Counted from the stretch's first letter, positions 5,516 to 21,495 are shown. The stretch: 64,000 bases of DNA from an uncultured bacterium (GCA_965233165.1 CBDDRX010000041.1:232-64231); one strand, 5' to 3'. Program-made: numbers and translations. Notes: generated by a model not told the origin, from the letters alone.

Positions 5516-6455
5516 GCGCCGGCGCCAGGGGGGCGCTGCGCTCCTGCCAGTGGCGCAGCTTCGCGAGCAGCGCCGCATCGTGCTCGCCCCGGATCGGCCA
5601 GCGGCGGTTCCACAGGTTGAAGCGCGGGCGCTGTCCGGCGGCGTCCTGCTGCGCCGCGGCGAGCGCGGCGAGCGTGCCGACGTCGCGCCAGTACGACCGC
5701 TCCTCGTGCTCCTGCACGCCCGGAACCTGGTTGCGCGCCAGGTCGTACGCGTAGACGCGCGAGGTCGCGGCGATGCGCGGCAGCACGTCGCGGCCGAAAT
5801 CGGTCTCGCCCAGCCGGCGTCCCTCGCGCAGCACCCGCTCGAGCGTCGCCGGCTCGAACAGGTAGTTGCCCATGGACGCGTACGCGCGGCCGGGGCTGCC
5901 CGGAATGTGCGGCGCAAACCGGGGCTTCTCGCGGAACTCGCGCACCCGGCCATCCGGCGCCGTCGAGACGATGCCGAAGGACGAGGCCTGCTCGACCGGG
6001 ACCGACACGGCGGCGACGGTCGCCTGGGCATCCTGCTCGAGATGGAAGGCGACCATCTGGCGGACATCCATCCGGTACACATGGTCGGCCGCGAAGACGG
6101 CGACCAGGTCGGGCTGGTGCGCCTGCACGAGGTCGAGGTACTGGTACACCGCGTCGGCGGTGCCCTTGAAGTGCCCGCCCAGCGTGTTGGCGCGCGGCAG
6201 CAGCGTCTTGATCACGCCCTGGCCGTCGGCGAGCCAGGGTGCCCAAGCCGACTCGACGTGCGCGATCAGCGAGGCGGGCTTGTACTGCGCCAGGACGTAG
6301 ATCGTGGAGATGCGCGAGTTGACCAGATTGCTCAGCACGAAATCGATGATGCGGTAGCCGTTGGCGAACGGCAGGGCCGGCTTCGCATGCTCGGCCGTGA
6401 GCGGATGCAGGCGCGTGCCTTCACCTCCGGCCAGAACGAGAGCGACGATTTTCAT
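5445..6455 (-). CDS. glgC: glucose-1-phosphate adenylyltransferase-like, catalytic domain only (C-terminal LbH domain absent)
   Basis: 336 aa. N-terminal LAGGEGTRLHPLT, FKGTADAV and YWRDVGT align with GlgC. The ORF ends about 60 aa after WPIRG, and its tail lies antisense to the 3' end of glgA. Confidence 0.85.
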   Translation of the reverse strand: MKIVALVLAGGEGTRLHPLTAEHAKPALPFANGYRIIDFVLSNLVNSRISTIYVLAQYKPASLIAHVESAWAPWLADGQGVIKTLLPRANTLGGHFKGTADAVYQYLDLVQAHQPDLVAVFAADHVYRMDVRQMVAFHLEQDAQATVAAVSVPVEQASSFGIVSTAPDGRVREFREKPRFAPHIPGSPGRAYASMGNYLFEPATLERVLREGRRLGETDFGRDVLPRIAATSRVYAYDLARNQVPGVQEHEERSYWRDVGTLAALAAAQQDAAGQRPRFNLWNRRWPIRGEHDAALLAKLRHWQERSAPLAPALRPSPAWRASGTDLRSDERLHSS

Positions 6456-6685
6456 GAGGGCGGTGCCTTTCCTGGACGAACTTGTTTAGTCGGGGAGCTA
6501 CGTCGCGGATGTTAGGGACGGGTAGCAATCCCGACTATCGGCGGGACTTGATTCCTTGCGTAGCGACCAGCCCACCGCGCGTAGCGCGATTGCGACAGCA
6601 GAATCAAGTCGCGGCGATATCGCTGCTGCGGCGCGGCACCTAACATTTTTTCCCCCGCCTGCAGCACTCCCCCGGAGGCTCTTCC

Positions 6686-7312
6686 ATGGGCAAGAAGCAG
6701 AAATCCCTGGCCGCATCCGCGCTCCTCGCCGCCGCCGCGGCGCTGTTCGTTCTCGGAACCGGGACCGCGAGGGCGCCCGGAACGCCCCTCGCGTGCGTGC
6801 TTCCGGCGGAAGAGGCGCTGCAGGAGCCCGAAGCGCAGCCGCTGGACGCCGGCCAGCGCGCGCTGGCCGACTTCCTTGCGCGGCGCTTCCAGGTCGCCGG
6901 CGAGGCCACCGCGACGATCGTGTCTGCGGCCTACGAGGCGGCCGGCGAAGCGGGCCTCGATCCGCTGCTCGTGCTGGCGGTGATCTCGATCGAGTCGCGC
7001 TTCAACCCGCTCGCGCAAAGCGGCATGGGCGCGAAGGGCCTGATGCAGATCATTCCCCGGTTCCATCGCGACAAGCTCGCCGAGCATGGCGGCGACCATG
7101 CGGTCCTCGACCCGCAGAGCAATATCCGGGTCGGCACGCAGATCCTCCAGGAGTACATCCACCGCAAGGGCACCCTGGAGGCCGGCCTGCAGTTCTACAA
7201 CGGGGCGAGCCGCGACGCGTCCGCCCAGTACGCGCAGAAGGTCATGGCCGAGCGCCTGCGCCTGGAGGCCACGTTGCGCGCGGCGCTGCGGCGGGGCACG
7301 CATCCGGCTTAA
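6686..7312 (+). CDS. lytic transglycosylase (SLT domain), exported
   Basis: 208 aa with a signal peptide (AAAALFVLGTGTARA) and the SLT catalytic region ISIESRFNPLAQSGMGAKGLMQI. Confidence 0.8.
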   Translation: MGKKQKSLAASALLAAAAALFVLGTGTARAPGTPLACVLPAEEALQEPEAQPLDAGQRALADFLARRFQVAGEATATIVSAAYEAAGEAGLDPLLVLAVISIESRFNPLAQSGMGAKGLMQIIPRFHRDKLAEHGGDHAVLDPQSNIRVGTQILQEYIHRKGTLEAGLQFYNGASRDASAQYAQKVMAERLRLEATLRAALRRGTHPA

Positions 7313-7321
7313 GCTCGGGGG

Positions 7322-9283
7322 GTGGAAGCGCCGGCCCGTGCCATCGTTGCGCCTCATGCCGTCCGCCGCGGGCGGCCATATCCCCTTGGCGCGACCTGGG
7401 ACGGATCCGGCGTCAACTTCGCGCTGCATTCGCGGCACGCCGAGCGCGTCGAGCTGTGCCTGTTCGACGCGAAGGGCCGCCGCGAGATCGAGCGGGTGGC
7501 GCTCGCCGAGCGCACCGACTTCACCTGGCACGGCTACCTGCCGGAGGCGCGCCCCGGGCTTCTCTATGCCTATCGCGTCCATGGGCCCGCCGGCCCGCAG
7601 CACCGCTTCAATCCGCATCGCACGCTGCTCGACCCGTACGCGCGCATGGTGGCCGGCGCGGTCTCTTCCGGCGCCGGGCGCTGCGTCGTGGTGGACTCCG
7701 CCTTCAGCTGGGACGACGATCGCCCGCCGCGCGTGCCTTGGGAAGACACGCTCATCTACGAGGCGCACGCGAAGGGGCTGACCTTCCGCCATCCCGACGT
7801 GCCGGCGCAGCTGCGCGGGACCTATGCGGGCCTGGCGAGCGCGCCCGTGGTCGAGCACCTGCGGTCCCTCGGCGTCACCGCCTTGCAGCTCCTTCCCATC
7901 CAGACGTTCGTGGACGACCGGCGCCTGCTCCAGGCCGGCCTGCGCAACTACTGGGGCTACAACAGCATCGGCTTCTTCGCGCCGGACCTGCGCTACAGCG
8001 CGACCGGCACGCTCGGCGAGTTCAAGACGATGGTGAAGACGCTGCATGCCGCCGGCATCGAGCTGCTCCTCGACGTCGTGTACAACCACACCGGCGAAGG
8101 CGACCACCGCGGCCCGACGCTTTCCTTCCGCGGCATCGACAACGCCCTGTACTACCGCCTGCGCGCCGACAACCCGCAGCACTACCTCGACTGGACCGGT
8201 ACCGGGAATACGCTGGATGTCTCCCAGCCCGCGGTGCTGCAGCTCGTCCTCGACAGCCTGCGCTACTGGGTGACCGAGATGCACGTGGACGGCTTCCGCT
8301 TCGACCTTGCGACCACGCTCGCGCGCGACGCGGCCGGCCATTTCGATCCGCGCGGCGCGTTCCTGAGCGCGGTGCGGCAGGACCCGGTGCTCTCGCAGGT
8401 GAAGCTCATCGCCGAGCCCTGGGACCTCGGCCCGGGCGGCTATCGGACCGGCGGCTTCCCCGGCGGCTGGTCGGAGTGGAACGACCGGTATCGCGATACG
8501 GTGCGTGCGTACTGGAAGGGCGACGAAGGCCGGATCGGCGAGCTCGCGGCGCGCCTGTCCGGATCGCCCGACCTGTTCGAAGGCGGCGGGCGCGCGCCGT
8601 GCGCGAGCGTCAACTTCGTCACCGCGCACGACGGCTTCACGCTCGAGGACCTGGTGAGCTACGGCGCGAAGCGCAACGAGGCGAACCTCGAGGGCAACCG
8701 CGACGGATCGGACCACAACATCAGCTGGAACTGCGGCGCCGAGGGGCCGAGCGCGGATCCGGCGGTCCGGCTCCTGCGGGAGAGGATGAAGAGGAATCTG
8801 CTGGCGACGCTTTTCTTCTCGCGCGGCGTGCCGATGCTGCTTGCGGGCGACGAGCTGGGCCGCACGCAGGGCGGCAACAACAACGCGTACTGCCAGGACA
8901 ATGAGATCTCATGGCTCGACTGGGAGCTCGACGGCCCGGGCCGGGCGCTGCTGGGCTTCGCGCGCCGGCTTTCGGCGCTGCGCAGGGGCCATGCGGCATT
9001 CCGGCCCCGCAAGTACGAGCCGGACATCGTCTGGCTCACGCCGCATGGAGGGGAGATGGCCGAGGCCGACTGGAACCTGCCGTTCGCGCGCTGCCTCGGC
9101 GCGCAGCTCGGGCAGGAGCTGCTGCTCCTGCTGAACGCGCACGACGGCGATATCCCGTTCGCCTTGCCCGAAGGGGCGTGGTCGCCGGCGCTGGACACCG
9201 CGGGCGAGGCGGAGCAGATCTTCGCCGGCACCTACCTGCTGCAGTCCCGCTCGCTGGCGCTGCACGTCAGACCCAGGTCGTGA
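7322..9283 (+). CDS. glgX: glycogen debranching enzyme
   Basis: 653 aa, GTG start. GH13 motifs: YWGYN, LDVVYNHT, GFRFDLA, AEPWD, NFVTAHDGFTL. Confidence 0.9.
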   Translation: MEAPARAIVAPHAVRRGRPYPLGATWDGSGVNFALHSRHAERVELCLFDAKGRREIERVALAERTDFTWHGYLPEARPGLLYAYRVHGPAGPQHRFNPHRTLLDPYARMVAGAVSSGAGRCVVVDSAFSWDDDRPPRVPWEDTLIYEAHAKGLTFRHPDVPAQLRGTYAGLASAPVVEHLRSLGVTALQLLPIQTFVDDRRLLQAGLRNYWGYNSIGFFAPDLRYSATGTLGEFKTMVKTLHAAGIELLLDVVYNHTGEGDHRGPTLSFRGIDNALYYRLRADNPQHYLDWTGTGNTLDVSQPAVLQLVLDSLRYWVTEMHVDGFRFDLATTLARDAAGHFDPRGAFLSAVRQDPVLSQVKLIAEPWDLGPGGYRTGGFPGGWSEWNDRYRDTVRAYWKGDEGRIGELAARLSGSPDLFEGGGRAPCASVNFVTAHDGFTLEDLVSYGAKRNEANLEGNRDGSDHNISWNCGAEGPSADPAVRLLRERMKRNLLATLFFSRGVPMLLAGDELGRTQGGNNNAYCQDNEISWLDWELDGPGRALLGFARRLSALRRGHAAFRPRKYEPDIVWLTPHGGEMAEADWNLPFARCLGAQLGQELLLLLNAHDGDIPFALPEGAWSPALDTAGEAEQIFAGTYLLQSRSLALHVRPRS

Positions 9284-11810
9284 GCCCGAGCTCGAAGGGA
9301 TGCGTCAGCAGCTCGTGGCGCGGGTAGATGCGGATCCGGTAGTCGAGCTTGCCCGACAGGCCGGGCTTCAGGTCGAGGGCGAAGCGGTGCTCGTCGGCAT
9401 CGAGCGTCCCCGCCGGCGCGAGGTCGTGGCTGTGCACCTGGTCGCGCGGCTCGCGCGACAGGAGGAGCTCCACGTGCACGTCGGAAGGGGCGAGGCCGTT
9501 CAGCTTCACGGCCACCTCGACCGGAACGCTCTCGCCGTACCGGATCCGCTGGCGCGGCGCATCGAGGCGGCGCGCCAGCACGCCGGGCCAGGCGCTGCGC
9601 ACGCGCGCCTTCCATGCGGCGATGATCCGCGCCGGCTCGTAGCCTTGCTCGGCGTAGCGGTGGCACTGCCGTGAGGCGGGCAGGTAGAACCTGGAAACGT
9701 ACTCGCCGAGCATGCGCGAGGCGTCGTACTTGGGCAGCAGCGAGGCCATCGAGCGCTTCGCCATGTGCACCCACCCGGGCGAATAGCCGCCTTCCGGGCC
9801 GCGCGCGTAGTAGAGCGGGACGACCTCGTGCTGCAGGATCTCGTAGAGCGTGCGCGCTTCCTCGTGGTCGCGCCGGTGCGGGTCGAGCTCCGGCGAGGCG
9901 GGCTGGATCGCCCAGCCGTTCTCGCCGTCGTAGCCCTCGTCCCACCAGCCATCGAGGATCGACAGGTTGAGCACGCCGTTCATCCCCGCCTTCATGCCGG
10001 AAGTGCCCGAGGCCTCGAGCGGGTAGACCGGGTTGTTGAGCCAGACATCGACGCCGGAGACGAGGCGCCGCGCGATGTGCAGGTCGTAGCCCTCGATGAA
10101 CAGGATCTTGCCCTCGAACTCCTCCTGCCGCGCGATGTGCGCGAGCGTGCGGATCAGCTCCTGGCCCGGCTCATCGGCGGGATGCGCCTTGCCGGCGAAG
10201 AGGAAGAGGACCCGCCGCTCCGGGTCGCCGAGCAGGCGCCGCAGGTGGTCGAGGTTGTTGAGGAGCAGGGTCGCCCGCTTGTACGTGGCAAAGCGGCGCC
10301 CGAAGCCGATCGTGAGCACGTCCGGCTTGGCCGGATCGGCGAAGCGCAGCAGCCGCTCGAGGTGCGAGGTGCTGCCGTGGTTGCGCGCCTGCTGGTGCGC
10401 GAGCCGGTGGCGCACCATGTGGAACATGCGCGACTTCACGTCCTGGCGCACGGCCCAGAAGATGTGGTCGGGGATGGCGCGGACCTTCTCCCAGATGCCC
10501 GGGTAGCTCAGCCGGTGCATCCAGCCCACGCCGAGGTAGCGCTCCAGGACCTCGGCCCATTCGGGCGCGAGGAACGTGGTCACGTGCACGCCGTTGGTCA
10601 CGTAGCTCACCGGGTTTTCCTCCGGCGCGACCTGCGGCCAGAACTCCTTCAGCATGCGCGCCGAGACGCCGCCATGGATGCGCGAGACGCCGTTGTGGTA
10701 GCGCGAGCCGCGGATCGCGAGCGCCGTCATGTTGAAGTCGCCGCCCTGCGGCGGCCGGGCAAGGGCGGCGACGCGCTCCGCCGCGCCGAGCTCGGCGAAG
10801 CAGCTCTTCAAATACGGCAGGACGGTGTTGTCGGTGAACTGGTCATGGCCCGCCGGAACCGGGGTGTGGGTGGTGAAGACGGTGTTCGCCGCCACCGCCT
10901 CGAGGGCGCTCTCCAGGTCGAACCCGCCGGCGACGCGGGTGCGCACCCGCTCGAGGATGAGGAATGCCGCGTGGCCCTCGTTGATGTGCCACACCGTGGG
11001 CCGGATGCCCATCGCCTCGAAGGCGCGCACCCCGCCGACGCCGAGGACGATCTCCTGCTCGACGCGCGTGGTGCGATCGCCGCCATAGAGGCGATGGGTG
11101 ATGCCGCGGTCGCGCTCGTTGTTCTCGGGCAGGTCGGCGTCGAGCAGGTAGAGCCGCACGTGGCCGACCATCGCGAGCCACACCTTGACCTGCACCTTGC
11201 GGCCCGGAAAGTCGACGACGACCCGCATCTCCGAGCCGTCCTCGCGGCGCACCGGCCGGATCGGCAGGTCATCGAAGTCGGAATCGTAGTACTCGGCGCG
11301 CTGGCGGCCCTCGCCATCCACCGTCTGCACGAAATACCCCTGGCGGTACAGCAGGCCCATCGCGACGAAGGGCAGCTGGAAGTCGCTCGCCGCCTTGCAA
11401 TGGTCGCCGGCGAGGATGCCGAGGCCGCCGGAATAGGTCGGCAGGCTCTCGTGCACGCCGAACTCGGCGCAGAAGTACGCCACCACGTCCGCTTCGCGGA
11501 AGCCGCCGCCGTTCTGCTTGAAGGGCGGCTCGGCGTGGTAGGCGTCGAATGCCGAGAGCACGCGGTTCAGGCTGTCGAGGAACGCCGGATCGGCCGCCGC
11601 CTCGATCAGGCGCTGCTCGTCGACGCGCTTGAGCATGCCCTTGGGGCTGTGGCCCGTGGCGTCCCACAGGACGGGGTTGAGGCGCGCGAAGAGCGCGCGC
11701 GTCGGCCGGTCCCAGCTGTACCACAGGTTGGTCGCCAGCTCTTCAAGCCGGGCGAGGCGCTGTGGGATCCTTGGGTTGACTTCGAGGGTGTAGCGCGTAC
11801 CGGGGCGCAT
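9267..11810 (-). CDS. glgP: alpha-glucan (glycogen/maltodextrin) phosphorylase, GT35
   Basis: 847 aa. Motifs: SGGLGILAGDH and the PLP-lysine region EASGTSGMKAGMNG. Convergent 17-nt overlap with glgX. Confidence 0.92.
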   Translation of the reverse strand: MRPGTRYTLEVNPRIPQRLARLEELATNLWYSWDRPTRALFARLNPVLWDATGHSPKGMLKRVDEQRLIEAAADPAFLDSLNRVLSAFDAYHAEPPFKQNGGGFREADVVAYFCAEFGVHESLPTYSGGLGILAGDHCKAASDFQLPFVAMGLLYRQGYFVQTVDGEGRQRAEYYDSDFDDLPIRPVRREDGSEMRVVVDFPGRKVQVKVWLAMVGHVRLYLLDADLPENNERDRGITHRLYGGDRTTRVEQEIVLGVGGVRAFEAMGIRPTVWHINEGHAAFLILERVRTRVAGGFDLESALEAVAANTVFTTHTPVPAGHDQFTDNTVLPYLKSCFAELGAAERVAALARPPQGGDFNMTALAIRGSRYHNGVSRIHGGVSARMLKEFWPQVAPEENPVSYVTNGVHVTTFLAPEWAEVLERYLGVGWMHRLSYPGIWEKVRAIPDHIFWAVRQDVKSRMFHMVRHRLAHQQARNHGSTSHLERLLRFADPAKPDVLTIGFGRRFATYKRATLLLNNLDHLRRLLGDPERRVLFLFAGKAHPADEPGQELIRTLAHIARQEEFEGKILFIEGYDLHIARRLVSGVDVWLNNPVYPLEASGTSGMKAGMNGVLNLSILDGWWDEGYDGENGWAIQPASPELDPHRRDHEEARTLYEILQHEVVPLYYARGPEGGYSPGWVHMAKRSMASLLPKYDASRMLGEYVSRFYLPASRQCHRYAEQGYEPARIIAAWKARVRSAWPGVLARRLDAPRQRIRYGESVPVEVAVKLNGLAPSDVHVELLLSREPRDQVHSHDLAPAGTLDADEHRFALDLKPGLSGKLDYRIRIYPRHELLTHPFELGLTTWV

Positions 11811-11919
11811 CCAGCTCGATTTTTACCAGACGCCGGGGGAAGGCGCGACCCCCGGCGCGAAGTTGCCCTCGTGTAGTGGATTGACTACGGGCTACGGGCC
11901 GGCGTAGCGTGCATGGCGA

Positions 11920-12798
11920 GTGAAACAGATCCTCTCCGGGCTGCTGCTGACTGCAAGCGCCGCGCTGGCGCAGCCGCTCCCCGTGCTGCATTTCGAACCT
12001 CCGCAGGGCTTTACCGGCAGCCTCGGCCGCGATCCTTCGGCGCATGTCTCGATGAGCGGCGACGCGACGCTGAACGTCTACCCGTTCCGCCGCCTGGAGG
12101 GTCCTTTCGCCGACCAGTTCCGGCGCACGCTCCTGCGCGAGCGCCTCGTTCCGGGAACCCAGGAAGCGCGCCTCGCCGGAGCGCCCGAGATCCAGGCGCT
12201 CGCGGTGCCCGGCGCCGAGGCAGCGATGTTCGCGCGCTTCGTCGAGGACCGCTTCGGCACCGCGCGCTACCGGCTGCGGCTCGCGATTTTCTCCGGCGGC
12301 GCGGTCTCGCTCGTCGACTACAACGCCGCGAGCCCCGAGGCGTACCAGCGCAACTGGCCGTCCGTGGCTGCGGTCATGGATTCGCTGAAGGTGGGCGGCT
12401 CGCCGGCCGCGGCAGCGCGCCCGGCGGCGCCGAAAGGGAAGGCGGCGGCCGGTGGCGCGGACGGCCTCTATCTCGCAAGCACGCGGCGTTTCGTGATGAG
12501 CCTCGGCGGCGCGCCGGGCAGCGGATCGTGGCAGGTCGCCACGCGCTTCTACCTGCTCTCTCCCGACGGCCGCTTTCATCGCGGCTACGACCTGCCTTCG
12601 GTCCCCGGCGGCGACCTGCGGCGCTTCGACTACGATGCGGCGGCGCGCGCCGACCGGCACAACACCGGCACGTATGCGCGCCGGGGAAATCGCCTGTCCT
12701 TCTCGAGCGGCACGGGGGAAAGCCTGGAGGGAACCCTGAGCGGCGAGGAACTGGCGCTCGACAGCCTCACGTTCAGGAAGGCGGCGCTGAAAAAGTAG
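11920..12798 (+). CDS. hypothetical exported protein
   Basis: 292 aa, GTG start, N-terminal signal peptide (LLLTASAALAQP). No recognisable domain. GC3-rich. The 3' end overlaps the kinase gene by 26 nt. Confidence 0.55.
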   Translation: MKQILSGLLLTASAALAQPLPVLHFEPPQGFTGSLGRDPSAHVSMSGDATLNVYPFRRLEGPFADQFRRTLLRERLVPGTQEARLAGAPEIQALAVPGAEAAMFARFVEDRFGTARYRLRLAIFSGGAVSLVDYNAASPEAYQRNWPSVAAVMDSLKVGGSPAAAARPAAPKGKAAAGGADGLYLASTRRFVMSLGGAPGSGSWQVATRFYLLSPDGRFHRGYDLPSVPGGDLRRFDYDAAARADRHNTGTYARRGNRLSFSSGTGESLEGTLSGEELALDSLTFRKAALKK

Positions 12799-14734
12799 CC
12801 CACCACTCCTGGGCTTCGCGCTGCGTCCAGCGGTGCTCGGCGGCGAGCGCGTCGAGCGCCTCCACCAGGCCGGCGACGCTCTGCGGGCGCAGGTCGCGGG
12901 ATTTCTCCAGGCAGGCGGTGACCAGCAGGTCGAGCTCCACCGGGATCGGCTGCGGCGCGGCGGCGCCGACGCGCGGCGGCTCCTCGTTCAGGATCTTGCT
13001 CGTGAGCGCGAAGTCCTCGGCGGCGTCGAACATGCGCTTTCCGGTCAGCATCAGGTAGGCGACCGCGCCGAGGGCGTAGATGTCGGCGCGCGCGTCCACG
13101 TCGGTCGGATCGCGCAGGCGCTCCGGCGCCATGTAGAGCGGCGTGCCGAGGATGCGCTGGCTGCGTGTCAGGTCGCGGCTGTGCGGCTGCGACAGGCTCT
13201 TCACCAGGCCGAAATCGAGGATCTTCACGAAGTCGTGCGCGCCGCCGTAGCGGCACACCATGATGTTCTCCGGCTTGACGTCGCGGTGCACCAGGCCCTT
13301 GCCATGTGCCTCGGACAGGCCGGCGCACACCTGGCGCAGCAGGTGGATGGCGCGCGCGACCGGGACCACCGGCGGAACGGACTTCTCGAGGACCTGCGAG
13401 ACGGTCAGGCCGTCGAGGTACTCCATGGCGTAGTAGAACAGGCCGTCGCGCGTGCGCCCATAGTCGAAGATCTCGACGGTGTTCGGGTGCGAGAAGCTGC
13501 TCGCGATCTGCACCTCGCGCTCGAAGCGGGCGATCATCTCGTCGGTCGCGCGCGCCGGCTTGAGCAGCTTGATGGCGGTCGGCCGCTTCAGCAGGTCGTG
13601 CCGCGCGAGGTAGACGGTCGCGACGCCGCCTTCGCCGATCTGCTTCTCCAGGACGTACGGGCCGAGCTTGCGGTGCGTGCCGAGCTGGCTGCGCAGGCGC
13701 ATCATGGAGAATACGCTCGCCAGCGCGGCGATCACCGCGGCCACCAGCGCGCCGAACACGACGCTGAAGGCGATGTTCAGGTAACGCAGCGGCGCATACG
13801 CCTCGGCCGCCTCGATCTGGATGGCGACGCCCATGGCGTACTCCGGCAGCCAGCGCCAGGCGCCGATGACCGGCGCGCCGCGGCGGTTCTCGTAGGGCTC
13901 GAGGATGACGCCGCCGCCCTCCATGATCCCGATGCGCGCGCGCATCGGGGCGAGCGTGCCGAAGCTCTCGGCGCTGAGCATGGTGCCGTTCTCGTCGAAC
14001 GCGAAGGTCTCGCCGGTTTCGCCCGGGCGCGCCGCATTGAGGATGGAGGCGAACACCGCGTCGACCGGCTCGGCGATCGCCAGCACGGCGATGACGCGGT
14101 CCGCGCCGTCGCGAACCGGCACCGCCATCCAGGCGAAAGGCGCGCCGGCGCGCACGCTCGGCGGCGAGGCGACGCGCTCGGCGTCCAGCACCGGGCGCAG
14201 GAAGCGCGCGCCCCCGTCGAAGACCGGGCCGAGCTGCGGGAGGAAGCGCTCCGGATGGACGGAAAGCCCGCAGTACTCGGGAAAGCGCGTCGCGACCAGC
14301 CGGCCGTCGGGGGCGATGACATTGAAGGTGGCGTCGCCGACCTCGCGCAGCAGCGGGCGCAGCGTCTCCTCCAGGCGGGCGCGCGCCGGCCCGGCGCACA
14401 GCGCCTCGCGCCGGGCGCCGCGTCCGGCGAGGGCCACGAGCTCGCCCACCGCGTCGCGCACCCGCGGAGCGCGCGCGATGCGCTCGGTGTCGGCGATTTC
14501 CTCCGCCACCCAGATGCGCAGCGCATTGACCTCCGAGTCGAGGAGGTTGCGCATCGTCCCGGCGCGCAGCTCGCGCAACGAGCCGGCCACGGCGCCGTAG
14601 GTCCAGTACCCGAGGGCGAAAAGCAGGACGGCGCTCGCAAGCACGACCAGCGCCCACGTGGAGGTGGCGGGAGGACGCGGCCGGACGTCGCCGTCCGCCG
14701 GGTGAAGCGTGTCGGCCTGTGTTTCCTGGACTAT
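12773..14734 (-). CDS. receptor Ser/Thr protein kinase with periplasmic Cache-like sensor domain
   Basis: C-terminal Hanks kinase motifs: GEGGVATVY, AIKLL, HRDVKPENIM, DFGL, APE. Two TM segments bracket a Cache-like region of about 330 aa. The upstream part of track ORF 12773..15559 is only moxR read out of frame. The start is unresolved: ATA 14734, CTG 14650 or GTG 14644. Confidence 0.82.
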   Translation of the reverse strand: MVQETQADTLHPADGDVRPRPPATSTWALVVLASAVLLFALGYWTYGAVAGSLRELRAGTMRNLLDSEVNALRIWVAEEIADTERIARAPRVRDAVGELVALAGRGARREALCAGPARARLEETLRPLLREVGDATFNVIAPDGRLVATRFPEYCGLSVHPERFLPQLGPVFDGGARFLRPVLDAERVASPPSVRAGAPFAWMAVPVRDGADRVIAVLAIAEPVDAVFASILNAARPGETGETFAFDENGTMLSAESFGTLAPMRARIGIMEGGGVILEPYENRRGAPVIGAWRWLPEYAMGVAIQIEAAEAYAPLRYLNIAFSVVFGALVAAVIAALASVFSMMRLRSQLGTHRKLGPYVLEKQIGEGGVATVYLARHDLLKRPTAIKLLKPARATDEMIARFEREVQIASSFSHPNTVEIFDYGRTRDGLFYYAMEYLDGLTVSQVLEKSVPPVVPVARAIHLLRQVCAGLSEAHGKGLVHRDVKPENIMVCRYGGAHDFVKILDFGLVKSLSQPHSRDLTRSQRILGTPLYMAPERLRDPTDVDARADIYALGAVAYLMLTGKRMFDAAEDFALTSKILNEEPPRVGAAAPQPIPVELDLLVTACLEKSRDLRPQSVAGLVEALDALAAEHRWTQREAQEWWATFSAPPS

Positions 14735-15678
14735 GGGATCGGCACGGCAGCGAGCAGCTGCGCGCCGATGTCGATGCGGCGCACCGAATCGTGCGCGGGC
14801 CGCAGGCGGTGCCCGGCAACGCCCGGGAGGATGGCCTGCACGTCCTCCGGGATCACCTTGTCGCGGCCCTCGAGCATCGCCCAGGCGCGCGCCGAATGCA
14901 CGAGCGCCAGGGCGGCGCGCGGCGAGAGGCCCGCCACGTAGTTCGGCGAGCGGCGCGTGTACTCGACGATCGCCTGCACGTAGTCGAGCAGCGCGGGCGC
15001 GACGTGGATCTTCTGCACCCCGGCCTGCAGCTCCATCAGCTCGGCCGGCGACATCGACGCATCCAGGGTCGCCAGCAGGTCGCGCCGGTCGGTGCCGGAG
15101 AGCAGCGCGCGCTCCGCGTCGCGGTCCGGGTAGCCGAGCTCGATGCGCATCATGAAGCGGTCGAGCTGCGACTCGGGGAGCGGGAAGGTGCCCACCTGCT
15201 CGGACGGGTTCTGCGTGGCGATGACGAAGAACGGCTCGGGCAGCTTGCGCGTCTCGCCTTCGGCGGTGACCTGGTGCTCCTCCATCGCCTCGAGGAGCGC
15301 GGACTGCGTCTTCGGCGTGGCGCGGTTCACCTCGTCGGCGAGGATGACCTGGGCGAAGATCGGCCCGGCGTGGAACTGGAAGCCGCCGGTCTCGCGCTCG
15401 TAGACCGCGACGCCGAGGATGTCGGCCGGCAGCATGTCGCTGGTGAACTGGATGCGCTGGAAGTGCAGCCCGAGCGAGCGGGCGAGCACGTGGGCGAGGG
15501 TGGTCTTGCCCACCCCGGGGAGGTCCTCGATCAGCAGGTGGCCGCGCGCGAGCATGCACGCGAGCGCCTGGCGGACCTGCGTCTCCTTGCCGAGGATGAT
15601 GCTGCTCGCGGCCGCGATGACGCGGTCGATCGGCCCGCGCCCGGCGGCGCGCGGCTGGAACTCGGCTTTCAGGAGCAT
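14731..15678 (-). CDS. MoxR-family AAA+ ATPase
   Basis: 315 aa. Walker A GVGKTTLA, Walker B ILADEVNRA, and sensor regions typical of the MoxR/AAA_3 family. Confidence 0.92.
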   Translation of the reverse strand: MLLKAEFQPRAAGRGPIDRVIAAASSIILGKETQVRQALACMLARGHLLIEDLPGVGKTTLAHVLARSLGLHFQRIQFTSDMLPADILGVAVYERETGGFQFHAGPIFAQVILADEVNRATPKTQSALLEAMEEHQVTAEGETRKLPEPFFVIATQNPSEQVGTFPLPESQLDRFMMRIELGYPDRDAERALLSGTDRRDLLATLDASMSPAELMELQAGVQKIHVAPALLDYVQAIVEYTRRSPNYVAGLSPRAALALVHSARAWAMLEGRDKVIPEDVQAILPGVAGHRLRPAHDSVRRIDIGAQLLAAVPIP

Positions 15679-15731
15679 GCGTCCCCGGAAATCATGCCGG
15701 CGATTGTACTCGATGGGATAAGATTTACCTC

Positions 15732-16661
15732 GTGAGCGCAGCGTTCGTCACGCACTCCGATTGTCTGAAGCATGAGATGGGTGCGCACCATCCCGAGCAG
15801 CCGGCGCGGCTCGCCGCGATCGAGGACCAGCTCATCGCCTCGGGCATCGGCCCGCACCTGGCGAGGTTCGACGCGCCCTTCGCCACCGACGAGCAGCTCG
15901 CCCGGGTCCATCCGCTCGAATACGTGCGCGCCATCCGGGAGGCCGCGCCCGAGCAGGGCACGATCCACCTCGACCCGGACACCGCGATGAACCCGCACAC
16001 TCTGAGCGCCGCGCTGCGGGCCGCCGGCGCCGCCGTGCTCGCCACCGACCTGGTCATGCAGGACAAGGTGAAGACCGCGTTCTGCAGCGTGCGGCCTCCG
16101 GGCCACCACGCCTGCCGCGCCCGGCCGATGGGCTTCTGCATCTTCAACAACGTCGCCGTCGCCGCGCGACACGCCATTCATGAACACGGCGTCGAGCGCG
16201 TGGCGATCATCGACTTCGACGTGCACCACGGCAACGGCACCGAGGACATCTTCGAGGGAGACGAGCACGTCCTGATGGCCTCGACCTTCCAGCACCCGTT
16301 CTATCCCTACAGCGGCACCGAGGCGCCGGCGCGGAACATGGTGAACGTGCCCCTCGCCGCCGGCGCCGGCTCGCGCGAATTCCGCCAGGCGGTCACCGAG
16401 GCCTGGCTGCCCGCGCTCGACGACTTCCGGCCCGAGCTGGTGATCTTCTCCGCCGGGTTCGACGCGCATGCCGAGGACGACATGGCGATGCTGCGCCTGG
16501 CCGACGCGGACTACGGCTGGGTGACGCGGCAGGTGAAGACCATCGCCGACCGGCATGCCGGCGGCCGGATCGTCTCGATGCTCGAGGGCGGCTATGCCCT
16601 GTCCGCGCTCGGCCGCAGCGCCGTGCAGCACATCAGGGTCCTCGCCGGCCTGGATGCCTGA
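15732..16661 (+). CDS. histone deacetylase-family (AcuC/AphA-like) amidohydrolase
   Basis: 309 aa, GTG start. Zinc/catalytic motifs: RPPGHHA, DFDVHHGNGT, GFDAH. Confidence 0.88.
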   Translation: MSAAFVTHSDCLKHEMGAHHPEQPARLAAIEDQLIASGIGPHLARFDAPFATDEQLARVHPLEYVRAIREAAPEQGTIHLDPDTAMNPHTLSAALRAAGAAVLATDLVMQDKVKTAFCSVRPPGHHACRARPMGFCIFNNVAVAARHAIHEHGVERVAIIDFDVHHGNGTEDIFEGDEHVLMASTFQHPFYPYSGTEAPARNMVNVPLAAGAGSREFRQAVTEAWLPALDDFRPELVIFSAGFDAHAEDDMAMLRLADADYGWVTRQVKTIADRHAGGRIVSMLEGGYALSALGRSAVQHIRVLAGLDA

Positions 16662-16670
16662 GAGGCGCGC

Positions 16671-17042
16671 CTAGTCGAGGCGCCAGGGCTCGCAGGTCCC
16701 GGAAGCCGCTCCGGAAGGCTGGCGCCGCAGCGAAGCGGCGGGTTCGTGTGCCGCCCGGTTGTCGAAATGCCAGGCGTGCTGCGCGGAAAAGCGCGTGCAG
16801 CGGAGGAGGTCGCCGCGCGTGCAGGCGGTGAGCGTGGTGACGCGCACGCTCGGCCCTTCGCCTTCGATGAAGTGGAGCTGTCCCTGCTCTTCCCTCAGCG
16901 CGACGGGCCGGCGCCCGGGCCGGCGCGAGTCGATGACTGCGCCTTCTTCCGCGCTGTGGATCTCGTAGAGCAGGACCGCCTCGGCGTTGAAATCGCAGAT
17001 CAGCTCGCCCGCGGCCAGCAGGGCGGCGGCCAGCGTGCTCAT
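16671..17042 (-). CDS. hypothetical protein, translationally coupled to selU
   Basis: 123 aa. Its ATG overlaps the selU stop (ATGA at 17039-17042). GC3-rich. No recognisable motif. Confidence 0.45.
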   Translation of the reverse strand: MSTLAAALLAAGELICDFNAEAVLLYEIHSAEEGAVIDSRRPGRRPVALREEQGQLHFIEGEGPSVRVTTLTACTRGDLLRCTRFSAQHAWHFDNRAAHEPAASLRRQPSGAASGTCEPWRLD

Positions 17043-18106
17043 GCGGCGGCGCGCTCGCGCGCGGCCAGGCGCGCGGCGATGGCAGCGAAGGCGTCCGGCG
17101 TGTCCACCGGGAGGCGCTCGGCCTCGGCGAGGGCGGGGAAGTTCCGCGTCGAGCTCTTGCGGTAGGCGGGGTCATAGTGCTCGAGGAGCAGGCGCGAGAC
17201 GAACTCGCGCCAGGCGCCGGCTTCGCCGAGCGCCTTCCATTGGGCGATCTTCTCGCGCCCGTGCAGCGCCACCAGGCAGTCGAGCTGCGCGTCGAGCGCC
17301 GCGCGGTCCTGCGTGAAATGCCGGTATTCGTCGAGGAGCAGCGTGACCCGGGTCTCCACGCCCGCCTCGAGAGCGACGCAGCGCGATGCGCGCATGCGCG
17401 AGATCAGGCCATCGGGGACCTGCAGCTGGCCGATCTTCTTCGACTCGCCTTCGACAAAGACCGTGCGCCGCGGGTCGAGCCGGGTGAGCGCGTGCAGCAG
17501 CCGGGATTCGAACATCTTCTGCGAAGGCTGCGGCCGGTCCGGAAGGTTGCCGAGGACCGAGCCGCGGTGCGCAGCGAGCCCCTCCAGGTCGAGCACCTGG
17601 GCGCCGGCCCTCGCGTGGGCGGCGAGAAGGCGGCTCTTGCCGCTGCCGGTCGGCCCGTGCACCACGGCGTAGGAGAACCGGCCGGGAATCCGGTCGAGCT
17701 CGGCGACCACCCAGCGGCGGTAGGCGCGGTAGCCGCCTTCGAGCGTCGCGGCCCCCCAGCCGATCTCCTGCAGGATGTGCGCCATCGCCCCGGAGCGCTT
17801 GCCCCCGCGCCAGCAGTAGACGAGCGGGCGCCAGTCCTTCGGCTTGTCGCGGAAGTGGCGCTCCACGTGCGCGGCGACGTTGCGCGCGACCAGCGCGCCG
17901 CCGACCTTCTTCGCCTCGAAAGCCGAGACCTGCTTGTAAAGCGTGCCGACCTCGGCGCGCTCGCTGTCGCTCAGGACCGGCGTCGACAGTGCATCCGGAA
18001 CGTGGTCTTCCGCGTATTCGGAAGGCGTGCGCGCGTCGAGGATCGCGTCGAATCCCGTAAGGATCGCGGCATCCATCGCGACCGAGTGCCTGGACGGCTT
18101 GTCCAT
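17039..18106 (-). CDS. selU: tRNA 2-selenouridine synthase
   Basis: 355 aa. The N-terminal rhodanese domain has the active-site VYCWRGGKRSG, followed by the P-loop GPTGSGKS. Confidence 0.9.
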   Translation of the reverse strand: MDKPSRHSVAMDAAILTGFDAILDARTPSEYAEDHVPDALSTPVLSDSERAEVGTLYKQVSAFEAKKVGGALVARNVAAHVERHFRDKPKDWRPLVYCWRGGKRSGAMAHILQEIGWGAATLEGGYRAYRRWVVAELDRIPGRFSYAVVHGPTGSGKSRLLAAHARAGAQVLDLEGLAAHRGSVLGNLPDRPQPSQKMFESRLLHALTRLDPRRTVFVEGESKKIGQLQVPDGLISRMRASRCVALEAGVETRVTLLLDEYRHFTQDRAALDAQLDCLVALHGREKIAQWKALGEAGAWREFVSRLLLEHYDPAYRKSSTRNFPALAEAERLPVDTPDAFAAIAARLAARERAAA

Positions 18107-18417
18107 CTGCCCGGATTTTACGCTGCTCAGTTTCCGGCTCGCGCCAGCGTCGAAGTAGCCGCCTTGACAACAGGGAGTTCCTTCGGAGAGTCTTGAACGA
18201 TGCTGATTCTTGCCCGCCTCATCTCCGCGAGCTGCCGTTCGCTCGTGTCGATGCTCGGCACGGGCTGCGCGCGCAGAGGACGAGCAGGCCGCTCCGGAAG
18301 CCCGGACGACTTCACTGCGGCCGCCCGCACGATGGTCCTGCTTTCCTCTCCCGCCTTCCGTTTCACCCCGAACCCGTCCGTTTCCTCACCCATCCCATCT
18401 GGCAGGGAGGTACGTTC

Positions 18418-19497
18418 ATGCATCGCAGATCGTTCCTGAAGGTTTCTTCGATGGCCGCCGCGGCGGCCGCGCTGCCGTGGCGCGGGGCGCTCGCCGCCCC
18501 GATCGCCGGCTGGCGCAGCTACGAAGTGGTTTCCCGCGTCGAGATCCTCAAGCCGCGCGGCGTTTCCCGCGCCTGGATCCCGCTCCCGTCGGTGGACAAC
18601 GCCGAATGGCACAAGACGCTGGGCAGCAGCTGGACCGGCAACGCGGGCCGCACGCTGGTCGCGACCGACGGCAAGTACGGCGCGCAGATGCTCTACGCGG
18701 AATGGGCGGAAGGAACGGCCAGCCCGGTCCTGGAGGTGACGAGCCGCGTCTCCACGCAGGACCGCGACATCGACGTGACCCGCGCGCGCTCCGGCGCGGA
18801 GCTCTCGGCGCCCGAGCGCGTCTTCTATACCTCGGCGACCGACTACATCCCGACCGACGGGATCGTGCGCGACACGGCGCAGAAGGCGATCAAGGGCGCG
18901 CGCAGCGAGGTCGACAAGGCGCGCGCGATCTACGAATGGGTGGTGGACAACACGTTCCGCGATCCCAAGACGCGCGGCTGCGGCTGGGGCGACATCAAGG
19001 CAATGCTCGAGACCGGGAACCTCGGCGGCAAGTGCGGCGACCTGAACGCGCTGTTCGTCGGGCTCGCGCGCTCGGTCGGCGTTCCGGCGCGCGATGTGTA
19101 CGGGCTGCGCGTCGCCCCCTCCGAGTACGGCTACAAGAGCCTCGGCGTAGGCTCGAGCAACGTGACGCGCGCGCAGCACTGCCGCGCGGAATTCTTCGCG
19201 CAGGGGATCGGCTGGGTTCCCGTCGATCCGGCGGACGTGCGCAAGGTGGTGCTCGAGGAGCCGCCGGCCAACCTGCCGCTGGGCGACCCCAAGGTGCAGG
19301 CGGCGCGCCAGCGCCTGTTCGGCAACTGGGAGATGAACTGGCTCGCCTACAACATGGGCCACGACATCAAGCTGCCCAACTCCAGCGGGCCGAAGATCCC
19401 CTATCTCATGTACATCAACGCGGAATCCGGCGGCGAGGCGCGCGACCCGCTCGACCCGGACTCGCTCAAGTACACGATCACGGCGAAGCCTGCCTGA
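18418..19497 (+). CDS. Tat-exported transglutaminase-like cysteine peptidase family protein
   Basis: ATG 18418 is preceded by GGAGG at 7-nt spacing. Twin-arginine signal MHRRSFLKVSSMAAAAAA. Cys-His-Asp core: GKCGDLNALF, HCRAEFF, VPVDPAD. Confidence 0.8.
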   Translation: MHRRSFLKVSSMAAAAAALPWRGALAAPIAGWRSYEVVSRVEILKPRGVSRAWIPLPSVDNAEWHKTLGSSWTGNAGRTLVATDGKYGAQMLYAEWAEGTASPVLEVTSRVSTQDRDIDVTRARSGAELSAPERVFYTSATDYIPTDGIVRDTAQKAIKGARSEVDKARAIYEWVVDNTFRDPKTRGCGWGDIKAMLETGNLGGKCGDLNALFVGLARSVGVPARDVYGLRVAPSEYGYKSLGVGSSNVTRAQHCRAEFFAQGIGWVPVDPADVRKVVLEEPPANLPLGDPKVQAARQRLFGNWEMNWLAYNMGHDIKLPNSSGPKIPYLMYINAESGGEARDPLDPDSLKYTITAKPA

Positions 19498-20422
19498 GCG
19501 CCGCACGGACCGCGCCGAGGAGCGCGCGGCGCTCCTCGGCCGGGGCGAACAGACGCCTGCGCCCGCGCATCGCCGCCTTCAGCGTCCGGTAGAAGGCGTG
19601 GTCGCGGCTTCGCGCCATCAGCGCGGCAAGCGCTTCGTGATCGCCGGTGCGGAAGTAGGCCGGCCAGGATGCGCCGAGCATGCCGAGGTTGCCCGACATG
19701 CGCGAGGCGAGCACCGGCACGCCGATGCGCGCGGCCTCCGCGATGACGTTCGCCCCGCCCTCCATTCTCGAGCTCACCACCAGCACATGGCTTGCGGCGA
19801 TCCACCGCAGGGCCCGCCCGTGCGGCAGGCTGCCGAGCCAGCGATAGCGCGGCTCGCGGCGCATCCACGCGCGGGCCGTCCTTTCGTGCGCCGCGTCCAG
19901 GGCGGCGCCGATGTGCACGAGCTCGATCGCGTCGTCGTTCACGAGCTCCAGGGCAAGCGCGGCGCGGAACGGATCCTTCACCTCGCGCAGATGGCCCACC
20001 ACGACGATGCGGAACCGCCCGCGCGGCGGCACGTGGCGCAGCTTCGTGTCGCTCGACTGGTAGACGACGTGCGCCTTTGCGCGCATCCCGGCCGGGAGCC
20101 GCCGGAGCGCGTCTTCCTGGAGCACGATCAGGCGGTCGGCGAGCCGCAGCGAGCGGCGCGCCTCGGCGCTGCCGGGCAGGTCGGCGTACAGGTCGGTTCC
20201 CGTCAGCGCCACGATGCGCGGGCCGGCGAACCGGACGATCGAATCGTGGCTGCGGCGCGCATGCAGCGCGAGCAATGCATCGCATTTCCCGCCCTGCCAG
20301 GAAAGGGCGACGCGGCAATCGAAGCCGGCGCCGCGCAGCATGCCCGCCCAGCGCGCCGCGGTATGGAGGTTGCCGTTGCGCGTTCCCGGGCGCGCCGGCG
20401 TGACGATCGAGATGCGCGGCAT
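19478..20422 (-). CDS. senB: SenB-like glycosyltransferase (selenosugar synthase candidate)
   Basis: 314 aa, compact GT-B-like (SSRMEGGANVIAEAARIGVPVLAS). It is divergent from and 20 nt away from the EgtB-like/SelD pair. The assignment rests mainly on context and remembered family features. Confidence 0.75.
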   Translation of the reverse strand: MPRISIVTPARPGTRNGNLHTAARWAGMLRGAGFDCRVALSWQGGKCDALLALHARRSHDSIVRFAGPRIVALTGTDLYADLPGSAEARRSLRLADRLIVLQEDALRRLPAGMRAKAHVVYQSSDTKLRHVPPRGRFRIVVVGHLREVKDPFRAALALELVNDDAIELVHIGAALDAAHERTARAWMRREPRYRWLGSLPHGRALRWIAASHVLVVSSRMEGGANVIAEAARIGVPVLASRMSGNLGMLGASWPAYFRTGDHEALAALMARSRDHAFYRTLKAAMRGRRRLFAPAEERRALLGAVRAALRQASP

Positions 20423-20442
20423 GGCTTGGATAGACTCGCGAA

Positions 20443-21495
20443 ATGTTAGCCGAAGACCTCGTCGCGAGCCGGGAATCGCTGGCCCGCGTCAGCTCGGTGA
20501 TGCGGGACGCGCGCCTGCTCGGGCCGAAGCTCGCGATCGTCAACCCGCCCCTTTGGGAGATCGGCCACGTGGCCTGGTTCCAGGAGCACTGGTGCCTTCG
20601 CGACGGGGGAAAGAAGGACTCCATCCTTCCGGGGGCGGACAAGCTCTACGATTCCGCGAAGGTTGCGCACGACGCGCGATGGGACCTGCCGCTGCCGGCG
20701 CTCGCCGACACGCAGCGCTACCTCGCGAACGTGCTCGAAGCGACGCTCGAGCGCCTGGCGCGCGAGCCGGAGAGCGAGGCGCTGCGCTACTTCGTGCGCC
20801 TCGCGACGTTCCACGAGGACATGCACGCCGAGGCGTTGCGCTACACCTGCCAGACGCTCGGCTACGAGGATGCGGCGGGAGGGGATGCGCCGGCCTTCGC
20901 GCCGGCGCAGGACCTGGCGTTCGCCGGCGGGCCGTTTATCCTCGGCGCGGTCCCGGGAAGCGCCGGGTTCGTGTTCGACAACGAGAAGTGGGCGCATCCG
21001 GTGGATCTCGCGCCCTTCCACATCGCGAGCGCGCCGGTCACGAACGCGGAATACCTTCGCTTCGTCGCGGCGGGCGGCAAGGCGCCTCGCTACTGGAGGG
21101 CGGCGGAGGGCGGCTGGCGCGAGCGCCGCTTCGACGCCTGGATCCCCCTTCGCGGCGAAGACCCCGTGCGGCACGTCGACTGGAACGAGGCGCAGGCCTA
21201 CTGCCGGTGGGCGGGGCGCCGGCTGCCCGGCGAGGCCGAATTCGAGCTCGCGTGCAGCGACGCACGGTTCCAGTGGGGCGCCTTGTGGGAATGGACCTCG
21301 AGCACCTTCGCGCCGTATCCCGGGTTCATGGCCGACCCGTACAAGGAATACTCGCAGCCCTGGTTCGGCACGCACAAGGTGCTGCGCGGCGCGAGTTTCG
21401 CCACGCCGCGGCGCCTTGCGCGGCCGACCTTCCGCAATTTCTACACCGCGGAGCGCGGCGACGTGTTCTGCGGCTTCCGCACCTGTCCGTTATAG
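20443..21495 (+). CDS. senA: EgtB/OvoA-family non-heme iron enzyme, SenA-like (selenoneine synthase candidate)
   Basis: 350 aa. DinB-type metal triad EIGHVAWFQEHW and FHEDMHAE (HX3HXE). FGE-sulfatase-like C-terminal half (DWNEAQAYCRWAGRRLPGEAEFE). Directly upstream of selD/senC. Confidence 0.78.
   Translation: MLAEDLVASRESLARVSSVMRDARLLGPKLAIVNPPLWEIGHVAWFQEHWCLRDGGKKDSILPGADKLYDSAKVAHDARWDLPLPALADTQRYLANVLEATLERLAREPESEALRYFVRLATFHEDMHAEALRYTCQTLGYEDAAGGDAPAFAPAQDLAFAGGPFILGAVPGSAGFVFDNEKWAHPVDLAPFHIASAPVTNAEYLRFVAAGGKAPRYWRAAEGGWRERRFDAWIPLRGEDPVRHVDWNEAQAYCRWAGRRLPGEAEFELACSDARFQWGALWEWTSSTFAPYPGFMADPYKEYSQPWFGTHKVLRGASFATPRRLARPTFRNFYTAERGDVFCGFRTCPL

Follow-up and report, generated by a model that had tools for sequence, protein, structure and literature searches.

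The window analyzed here is a stretch of 64,000 nucleotides from an uncultured bacterium (GCA_965233165.1, CBDDRX010000041.1:232-64231) and represents contig C41, with 70% G+C, of a source assembly of 3.35 Mb in 161 contigs. On the minus strand of this window, a gene for an MRP-type MoxR AAA+ ATPase (moxR) runs directly into a gene for a receptor Ser/Thr kinase with a periplasmic double-Cache (dCache) sensor. We interpret this arrangement as the ATPase part of a split MoxR-DUF58-TgpA module, the remaining genes of which lie on another contig, with the gene for a dCache kinase, optional and translationally coupled, attached to that of the ATPase. We give this interpretation a probability of about 0.5. 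The ATPase and kinase genes comprise the following features.

14731-15678, minus strand: moxR, encoding an MRP-type MoxR AAA+ ATPase of 315 amino acids (Pfam AAA_3 and AAA_lid_2)
14731-14733, minus strand: stop codon of moxR, TAG
12773-14734, minus strand: receptor Ser/Thr kinase gene, about 653 codons if the start is the ATA at 14734-14732
14731-14734, minus strand: ATAG overlap, in which the moxR TAG and the in-frame kinase ATA share two bases
14657-14730, minus strand: N-terminal cytoplasmic peptide of the kinase, VQETQADTLHPADGDVRPRPPATST, encoded 5' of every canonical start codon
14588-14656, minus strand: first transmembrane helix (TM1) of the kinase, residues ~26-48
13781-14587, minus strand: periplasmic dCache sensor of ~270 amino acids, between TM1 and the second transmembrane helix (TM2)
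13712-13780, minus strand: TM2 of the kinase, residues ~318-340
12881-13657, minus strand: Hanks-type Ser/Thr kinase catalytic domain (Pkinase, residues 359-617)

A preliminary description of this locus, made from the sequence alone, had the moxR stop codon abutting or overlapping the 5' end of the kinase gene, a divergent HDAC-like gene upstream, and a convergent exported open reading frame (ORF) of 292 amino acids downstream that overlaps the kinase 3' end by 26 nucleotides. We observed all three, the TAG at 14731-14733 running into the kinase frame and the two neighboring genes lying at the positions listed further below. The order of transmembrane helix, Cache domain, transmembrane helix and Hanks kinase that it proposed also stands, while the length of ~330 amino acids that it gave for the periplasmic part has to be lowered to about 270.

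The MoxR protein exceeds the Pfam cut-offs for both AAA_3 (E 3.4e-63, 211.8 bits against a cut-off of 27) and AAA_lid_2 (E 2.9e-18, 65.8 bits). Walker A (GVGKT) and Walker B (ADEVNR) motifs are readable in its translation, and its nearest solved structure is PDB 2R44 (E 3.8e-61). An MRP-type MoxR gene is expected to have a DUF58 or VWA partner gene next to it, and none was found, since DUF58, VWA and VWA_2 gave no match anywhere on contig C41; the preliminary description had likewise seen no such gene nearby. NCBIfam offered no specific family for the MoxR, HDAC-like, DUF58-like or TgpA proteins. Orthologs of this MoxR are present in approximately 31 of the 36 other genomes of the genus, with 86-94% identity, and in 15 of the 24 other families of the order, with 56-73% identity. 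At the loci examined in other families, moxR is directly followed by a gene for a DUF58-like protein (316-340 amino acids) and then by a gene for TgpA (650-720 amino acids), the product of which carries the domains TgpA_N, Transglut_core and DUF4129. The MoxR ortholog and TgpA lie within ~3 kb of each other on one contig in 13 of these 15 families. Their phyletic distributions match as well: among the 24 other families, both are present in 15 and both are absent from 9. These comparisons identify the window MoxR as an ortholog of the ATPase that heads moxR/DUF58-like/tgpA operons.

The genome from which the window derives retains the other two genes of this operon on contig C44. The TgpA gene lies at C44:3887-5860 (TgpA_N E 4.9e-78, with Transglut_core and DUF4129), and the Cys, His and Asp motifs of its product are readable. 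The adjoining gene at C44:5857-6831 encodes a DUF58-like protein that hhalign relates to canonical DUF58 with 90.5% probability, and no MoxR gene was found beside the pair. TgpA is present in 29 of the 36 other genomes of the genus; in every one of these in which the MoxR ortholog was found too, the two genes lie on separate contigs. Thus, an orthologous ATPase and genes for a DUF58-like protein and TgpA are all present in this genome, and a single operon that unites them was found neither here nor in the other genomes of the genus. Because the C44 pair has been retained, and because MoxR and TgpA co-occur across families, it appears that the DUF58-type partner was moved and not lost. The pair is located (C44:3887-7461, locus L135) directly behind proS and a gene for a 202-amino-acid exported lytic transglycosylase with an SLT domain, and in this genus the TgpA pair therefore has a new operon context.

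The same genome encodes additional MoxR proteins. Contig C102 carries a canonical operon that encodes MoxR, a DUF58 protein with VWA_2, and BatA with VWA, and its MoxR is a paralog that is 42% identical to the window MoxR. We considered the DUF58 and VWA genes of C102 as the missing partners and rejected them, as they already lie beside a MoxR paralog of their own. A third MoxR (AAA_3) gene, at G000:C25:3676-4038, is interrupted by the end of a 4-kb contig and is preceded by two genes for exported proteins. In some genomes of the genus, an additional MoxR paralog (47-48% identity) is encoded ~2.5 kb from a transglutaminase-core gene (G011:C262:4135-7861 and G008:C30:8725-12463); from their gene content, these loci look like a second MoxR-transglutaminase module.

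The moxR-kinase pair is flanked in the window by the following genes and region.

15732-16661, plus strand: HDAC-like amidohydrolase gene (Hist_deacetyl E 5.5e-89), divergent from moxR and 53 nucleotides away from it
15679-15731, no strand assigned: moxR/HDAC intergenic region with a conserved element (alignment of 21 loci)
11920-12798, plus strand: convergent exported ORF of 292 amino acids, with a 26-nucleotide overlap with the kinase 3' end
9267-11810, minus strand: gene for a GlgP-like phosphorylase (glgP), on the same strand as moxR

A gene for the sensor kinase was found in 9 of the 36 other genomes of the genus and in 1 of the 24 other families of the order. Seven of the nine genus kinases lie directly after the MoxR ortholog, with the HDAC-like gene divergent from it, and in the remaining two genomes (G025 and G026) the kinase gene has a locus of its own, apart from moxR. 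The preliminary description had proposed a survey of relatives for moxR followed by a Cache-domain Ser/Thr kinase gene, and the arrangement thus recurs in seven other genomes of the genus, all within one clade. It is also present in public data: seven of eight contigs sampled via close protein homologs (sensor identity 58-78%) have the HDAC/moxR/kinase trio, so the adjacency is not unique to the window genome. The public contigs that bear the trio show at least five different downstream contexts and several upstream contexts. Records of the genome collection outside the set of relatives (L035, L037 and L040) have the adjacency as well. The gap-free pairing of moxR and the kinase is conserved in one group of soil Burkholderiales. 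The pairing of the HDAC-like gene with moxR is conserved well beyond the kinase-bearing clade, as the HDAC-like gene adjoins the MoxR ortholog in all nine kinase-less genus loci examined and in 7 of 11 loci from other families.

The content of the slot between moxR and glgP varies. Among the kinase-less genus loci, moxR is followed directly by glgP in L118 and L123, and by an alpha/beta-hydrolase gene and then glgP in L117, L119 and L120; a metagenomic contig (L141) has the order moxR-kinase-hydrolase-glgP. The hydrolase that occupies this slot is an exported protein of 453-461 amino acids (Abhydrolase_1 E 1e-35) with a C-terminal extension of ~150 amino acids that has no family match, and its gene starts 1-10 nucleotides past the preceding stop codon (L117:5966-7327, L119:5997-7358, L120:3637-5022 and L141:5327-6697). 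No column of the MoxR alignment divides kinase-linked from unlinked genomes, and in the MoxR tree linked and unlinked genomes are interleaved. Since the contents of the slot vary and the MoxR tree interleaves, the kinase gene appears to be an accessory gene in a variable slot that was gained once and has often been lost.

The kinase consists of a cytoplasmic N-terminal peptide, TM1, the dCache sensor, TM2 and a Hanks-type kinase domain, in that order. The catalytic domain matches Pkinase with E 1.3e-44 and 153 bits, against a cut-off of 31.7, and its motifs are intact (G-loop GEGGVATV, AIK, HRDVKPEN, DFG and APE). Its best matches in the PDB are PknB and Stk1-type kinases (E 8e-42), with which these motifs align. 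By score and by motifs, therefore, the protein qualifies as a Hanks-type Ser/Thr kinase. The sensor of the window kinase matches Pfam dCache_1 (PF02743) in its distal part only, with 27.7 bits against a gathering score of 45, and many homologs of the kinase have a precomputed PF02743 match. We built an AlphaFold2 model of the sensor on ten homologs, with a pLDDT of 86.6 and a pTM of 0.78. When this model was compared with the PDB using Foldseek, nearly all of the top 50 matches were dCache ligand-binding domains with a probability of 1.0, including those of PctA, Mlp37, CtaA, DctB and TlpA, with target-normalized TM-scores of 0.5-0.7. According to the model, the sensor is a dCache fold, that is, a double PAS-like structure on a long N-terminal helix, located between the two transmembrane helices.

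The family to which the kinase belongs is large, with at least 353 database proteins and 541 genome loci in a scan that used one genome per species. We scored linkage to moxR in 90 loci, namely the best 80 of the 541, the window, and the loci fetched earlier. No MoxR gene was found within 6 kb in 65 of the 90, and a contig end truncates a further 10. No recurrent neighbor gene was detected in the wider family, the top clusters being antisense shadow ORFs, TctC-type binding proteins and the like. In a maximum-likelihood tree, every linked kinase falls inside one clade (SH-aLRT 100), the 19 rows of which comprise 11 linked kinases, 5 unlinked kinases and 3 at contig ends. The simplest history of the linkage that this tree suggests is one gain followed by at least two losses.

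No ATG, GTG or TTG is present between the moxR stop codon and TM1. Gene callers place the kinase start at GTG 14644, inside TM1, which yields a protein of 623 amino acids (P0005), and public gene calls shorten the kinase by ~30 residues. The sole start-like codon before the conserved N-terminal peptide is ATA; with this as the first codon, the peptide reads (M/I)VQETQADTLHPADGDVR. Of the 10 TAG-stop junctions scanned, 9 have this ATA overlapping the TAG to give ATAG, and so do 3 of 5 additional contigs. Junctions of this type are present in the window and in L021, L024-L026, L030, L035, L037, L137, L138 and L141. In L139 the overlap reads CTGA, in L140 a CTG lies 15 nucleotides past the stop codon, at the position of the ATG of P0063, and in L022 an ATT precedes the kinase. 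Normal GTG starts occur in L032 and L040, which are more distant. In L022 (1237-1273, genome G032), the moxR TGA and the kinase are kept apart by an insertion of 30 nucleotides that includes a GC-rich hairpin (GCGGGG-CAGGGGT-CCCCGC). The kinase frame relative to that of moxR is -1 in most loci, +1 in L022 and L034, and 0 in L032 and L040. At such a genomic G+C content, CCA (Pro) and TAG are both rare choices.

The N-terminal peptide contains a conserved motif, [DN]T[LV]HP, which is shared by homologs that begin with an ordinary ATG. In two pairs of closely related loci, 19 of the 23 nucleotide differences in this region fall at third codon positions, and 16 of the 21 changed codons are synonymous. 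The conserved motif and the third-position bias indicate that the 17-28 codons before TM1 are translated. Consequently, GTG 14644 is disfavored as the true start, as the codons upstream of it evolve as coding sequence and the same peptide follows an ATG in homologs. We also looked for a canonical start codon hidden in the 3' end of moxR and found none within 250 nucleotides upstream in seven of the loci scanned. The likeliest explanation of these patterns would be a weak, moxR-dependent initiation at a near-cognate ATA or CTG by termination-reinitiation. The kinase genes provide a clean natural set of conserved, probable near-cognate starts (ATA and CTG) that overlap a stop codon, and they show how gene callers mis-annotate such starts, cutting the protein within its first transmembrane helix.

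Taken together, these results suggest the following scheme. Elsewhere in the Burkholderiales, the MRP-type MoxR heads a moxR/DUF58-like/tgpA operon that is often divergent from an HDAC-like gene. In the ancestor of a genus-level clade, the DUF58-like gene and tgpA would have moved to another locus, which is now represented by the position behind the SLT-domain gene and proS on C44, and the relocated proteins most likely act with MoxR in trans, as orthology and phyletic co-occurrence suggest. The slot 3' of moxR would have been filled from a family of betaproteobacterial stand-alone dCache receptor Ser/Thr kinases. The kinase gene has no room for a promoter of its own and is most likely transcribed from the moxR promoter. 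Its translation is most likely low, with ribosomes that end at the moxR stop codon restarting at the overlapping ATA or CTG. The dCache domain would sense a small periplasmic ligand and the kinase would phosphorylate cytoplasmic targets, the most plausible of which is the MoxR/DUF58-like/TgpA envelope machinery, by analogy with Pkb2 and MoxR of the Bifidobacterium PFNA operon. The kinase is plausibly a regulatory input. It would be dispensable for MoxR function in most relatives.

Several observations weigh against the split module with an optional coupled kinase. The DUF58-like protein reaches 21.2 bits in Pfam, below the cut-off of 23.4. No TgpA ortholog was found in three of the eight kinase-linked genomes, the window genome counted among the eight (G011, G016 and G023, with completeness of 91, 75 and 91%, respectively). 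If these losses are real, kinase-bearing genomes can retain MoxR in the absence of TgpA. TgpA is also absent from 4 of the 28 kinase-free or unlinked genomes; the genomes compared are incomplete metagenome-assembled genomes, and the enrichment of TgpA absence among linked genomes is not significant (one-sided hypergeometric p ~0.17). The hydrolase and glgP are packed against moxR as tightly as the kinase is, and since other genes in the slot are equally tight, tight packing alone says little about function. Finally, co-transcription, the ATA or CTG start, and action in trans with the DUF58-like protein and TgpA are inferences from sequence.

With the slot holding the kinase, the hydrolase, both or nothing, and each packed tightly, it is a real possibility, albeit a less probable one than the split module with its coupled kinase, that the kinase is unrelated to MoxR. 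It would merely occupy a variable moxR-glgP slot and borrow the transcription and translation of moxR, and the adjacency would persist only since the kinase would otherwise go unexpressed. The kinase is indeed missing from most genus genomes that have a near-identical MoxR, MoxR does not co-vary with the presence of the kinase, the kinase family consists mostly of stand-alone members that share no recurrent neighbor, and the linkage has probably been lost at least twice with the kinase kept. Against this stand the retention of the HDAC/moxR/kinase trio across many flanking contexts and the independent recurrence, in Actinobacteria, of kinase genes next to MoxR-DUF58-transglutaminase genes; there, MoxR is a reported kinase substrate. 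A reading that goes further in the opposite direction would make the dCache kinase the signal-input subunit of an orphaned MoxR. Ligand binding would cause MoxR, or else the DUF58-like protein or TgpA encoded in trans, to be phosphorylated, MoxR would serve as an AAA+ chaperone that matures the envelope transglutaminase, and the dose of kinase would be tied to that of MoxR by reinitiation at AUA or CUG, the whole being an independent proteobacterial reinvention of the logic of the actinobacterial PFNA and Esr systems. We regard this more elaborate reading as tentative and rather doubtful.

The preliminary description took the kinase to stand beside moxR instead of a VWA or DUF58 protein, as the client or the regulator of MoxR. 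On this view, the kinase would have supplanted the adaptor as the dedicated partner of MoxR, in a new two-component MoxR module. That no VWA or DUF58 gene is present on the contig, and that moxR and the kinase overlap and are conserved together, would fit such a replacement, and the three kinase-linked genomes that have no TgpA ortholog are the main reason why it survives at all. We nevertheless consider it unlikely: DUF58-like and TgpA orthologs are kept in the window genome, on C44, and in 29 of the 36 other genomes of the genus, the ATPase itself is the ortholog of the MoxR-DUF58-TgpA ATPase, and this MoxR is equally conserved in approximately 24 genus genomes that have no linked kinase, which makes the kinase a poor candidate for a replacement partner. 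The TgpA absences, as noted, are not significantly enriched among the kinase-linked genomes, and the assemblies are incomplete. A MoxR-kinase fusion protein, produced by a -1 frameshift or similar recoding at the end of moxR, would be topologically compatible (cytoplasmic ATPase, TM1, periplasmic dCache, TM2, cytoplasmic kinase), and the kinase frame is -1 in most loci, is open far upstream, and has no canonical start codon. We rejected such a fusion as highly improbable, as there is no conserved slippery sequence, the last codons of moxR varying (ATC CCA, ATA CCA, ATT CCG, GTC CCA). The relative frame varies among loci as well (+1 for L022 and L034; 0 for L032 and L040, in which the kinase starts at a normal GTG), and homologs have an ordinary ATG at the same position of the peptide.

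The region between moxR and the HDAC-like gene contains an element, ATTGTAC..CGATG.G.TAAGAT, that is conserved in the alignment of 21 loci. Within it, we recognize candidate back-to-back -10-like boxes, TACAAT for moxR (15703-15708) and TAAGAT for the HDAC-like gene (15719-15724). The spacer between the two genes is 32-41 nucleotides long in nearly all relatives, in which TACAAT ends 6 nucleotides before the moxR ATG, and TAAGAT ends 7-13 nucleotides before the HDAC start. Because the -10-like boxes are so near to the starts, both mRNAs may be leaderless or nearly so, and the -35 region predicted for each gene may lie inside the other gene. Only in the window genome is the TACAAT box set off from the moxR start codon by an insertion of 17 nucleotides (15679-15695). 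With this insertion, the ancestrally placed ATG (15695-15693, minus strand) no longer lies in the moxR frame and begins a mini-ORF of 8 codons that overlaps the moxR start. A promoter and terminator scan of 11700-16000 yielded nothing useful.

As for the other neighbors, the 292-amino-acid ORF had no Pfam or NCBIfam match, and its sole homolog, with 69% identity, is at the same position in the closest relative, L035; by this distribution, the ORF is lineage-specific. Next to the HDAC-like gene (window 16633-18106) lie selU, encoding rhodanese and AAA_SelU domains, and a small coupled ORF of ~100-160 amino acids, and both are kept beside the HDAC-like gene in several relatives (L032, L137 and L141).

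Several known systems bear comparison with the window locus. The canonical MoxR-DUF58-VWA/BatA operon encodes an ATPase of the same family, and in this genome it is represented by the C102 copy, which is complete with its own partners. Kaur et al. (2020) reportedly described MoxR-vWA-beta-propeller ternary conflict systems; the window locus does not belong with these, as its MoxR scores 31.7 bits with bpMoxR versus 211.8 bits with AAA_3, and it has no vWA neighbor and no beta-propeller family among the neighbors scanned. Stand-alone betaproteobacterial dCache Ser/Thr kinases have the same architecture as the window kinase (an N-terminal peptide with a T-x-H-P motif, transmembrane helix, dCache, transmembrane helix and Pkinase). 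They are mostly without MoxR nearby and, unlike the window kinase, commonly begin at a normal ATG or GTG.

The MRP subfamily context of such modules is reportedly given by Snider and Houry (2006) and by Wong and Houry (2012). A MoxR-DUF58-TgpA operon is found in Pseudomonas aeruginosa, with PA2875 presumably being its MoxR-type ATPase. The P. aeruginosa genes PA2875-PA2874-tgpA (PA2873) are co-transcribed, and TgpA is critical for viability of this organism (PMC3507681). The MoxR-DUF58-transglutaminase arrangement is cited as typical of the MRP subfamily (PMC6803598). The window locus resembles this operon in its orthologous ATPase and in the DUF58-like and TgpA genes kept in the same genome. 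It differs in that the module is split, with moxR on C41 and the DUF58-like gene and tgpA on C44, and in that the dCache Ser/Thr kinase occupies the position that is usual for the DUF58-like gene. The mechanism of the MoxR-DUF58-TgpA module is still poorly understood. An ATPase gene that is detached from its partners yet co-occurs with them would mean that the partnership needs no co-translation in cis.

The closest parallels to the kinase-MoxR combination are actinobacterial. The Bifidobacterium PFNA operon has the order pkb2-fn3-aaa_atp-duf58-tgm, and MoxR has been reported as a substrate of Pkb2 (PMC6803598, PMC12067865). The proposed model of the Esr pathway of oral Actinomycetales leads from a surface sensor to MoxR and vWA proteins, and from these to a kinase/phosphatase pair and an FHA protein (bioRxiv 10.64898/2026.09.08.750141). 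What these systems have in common with the window locus is a membrane Hanks-type kinase encoded together with an MRP-type MoxR. Such kinases have repeatedly become attached to this module, in two phyla, which points to phosphorylation as a common means of control. PFNA and Esr belong to another phylum than the proteobacterial window locus, and their kinases may not be orthologous to the window kinase. No FN3 or other surface-protein, phosphatase or FHA gene was found in the annotated stretch 5445-21495 of the window, and the DUF58-like and transglutaminase genes are present in trans and not in one cluster. The preliminary description had recognized no described system at this locus. With PFNA and Esr published as actinobacterial operons that combine a kinase with MoxR, DUF58 and transglutaminase genes, the window locus is no novel type of system, and a link in function of its kinase to MoxR is hypothetical. 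What holds of the earlier view is that this proteobacterial variant differs from the described ones, its kinase gene lying 3' of moxR and its kinase having a periplasmic dCache sensor of its own.

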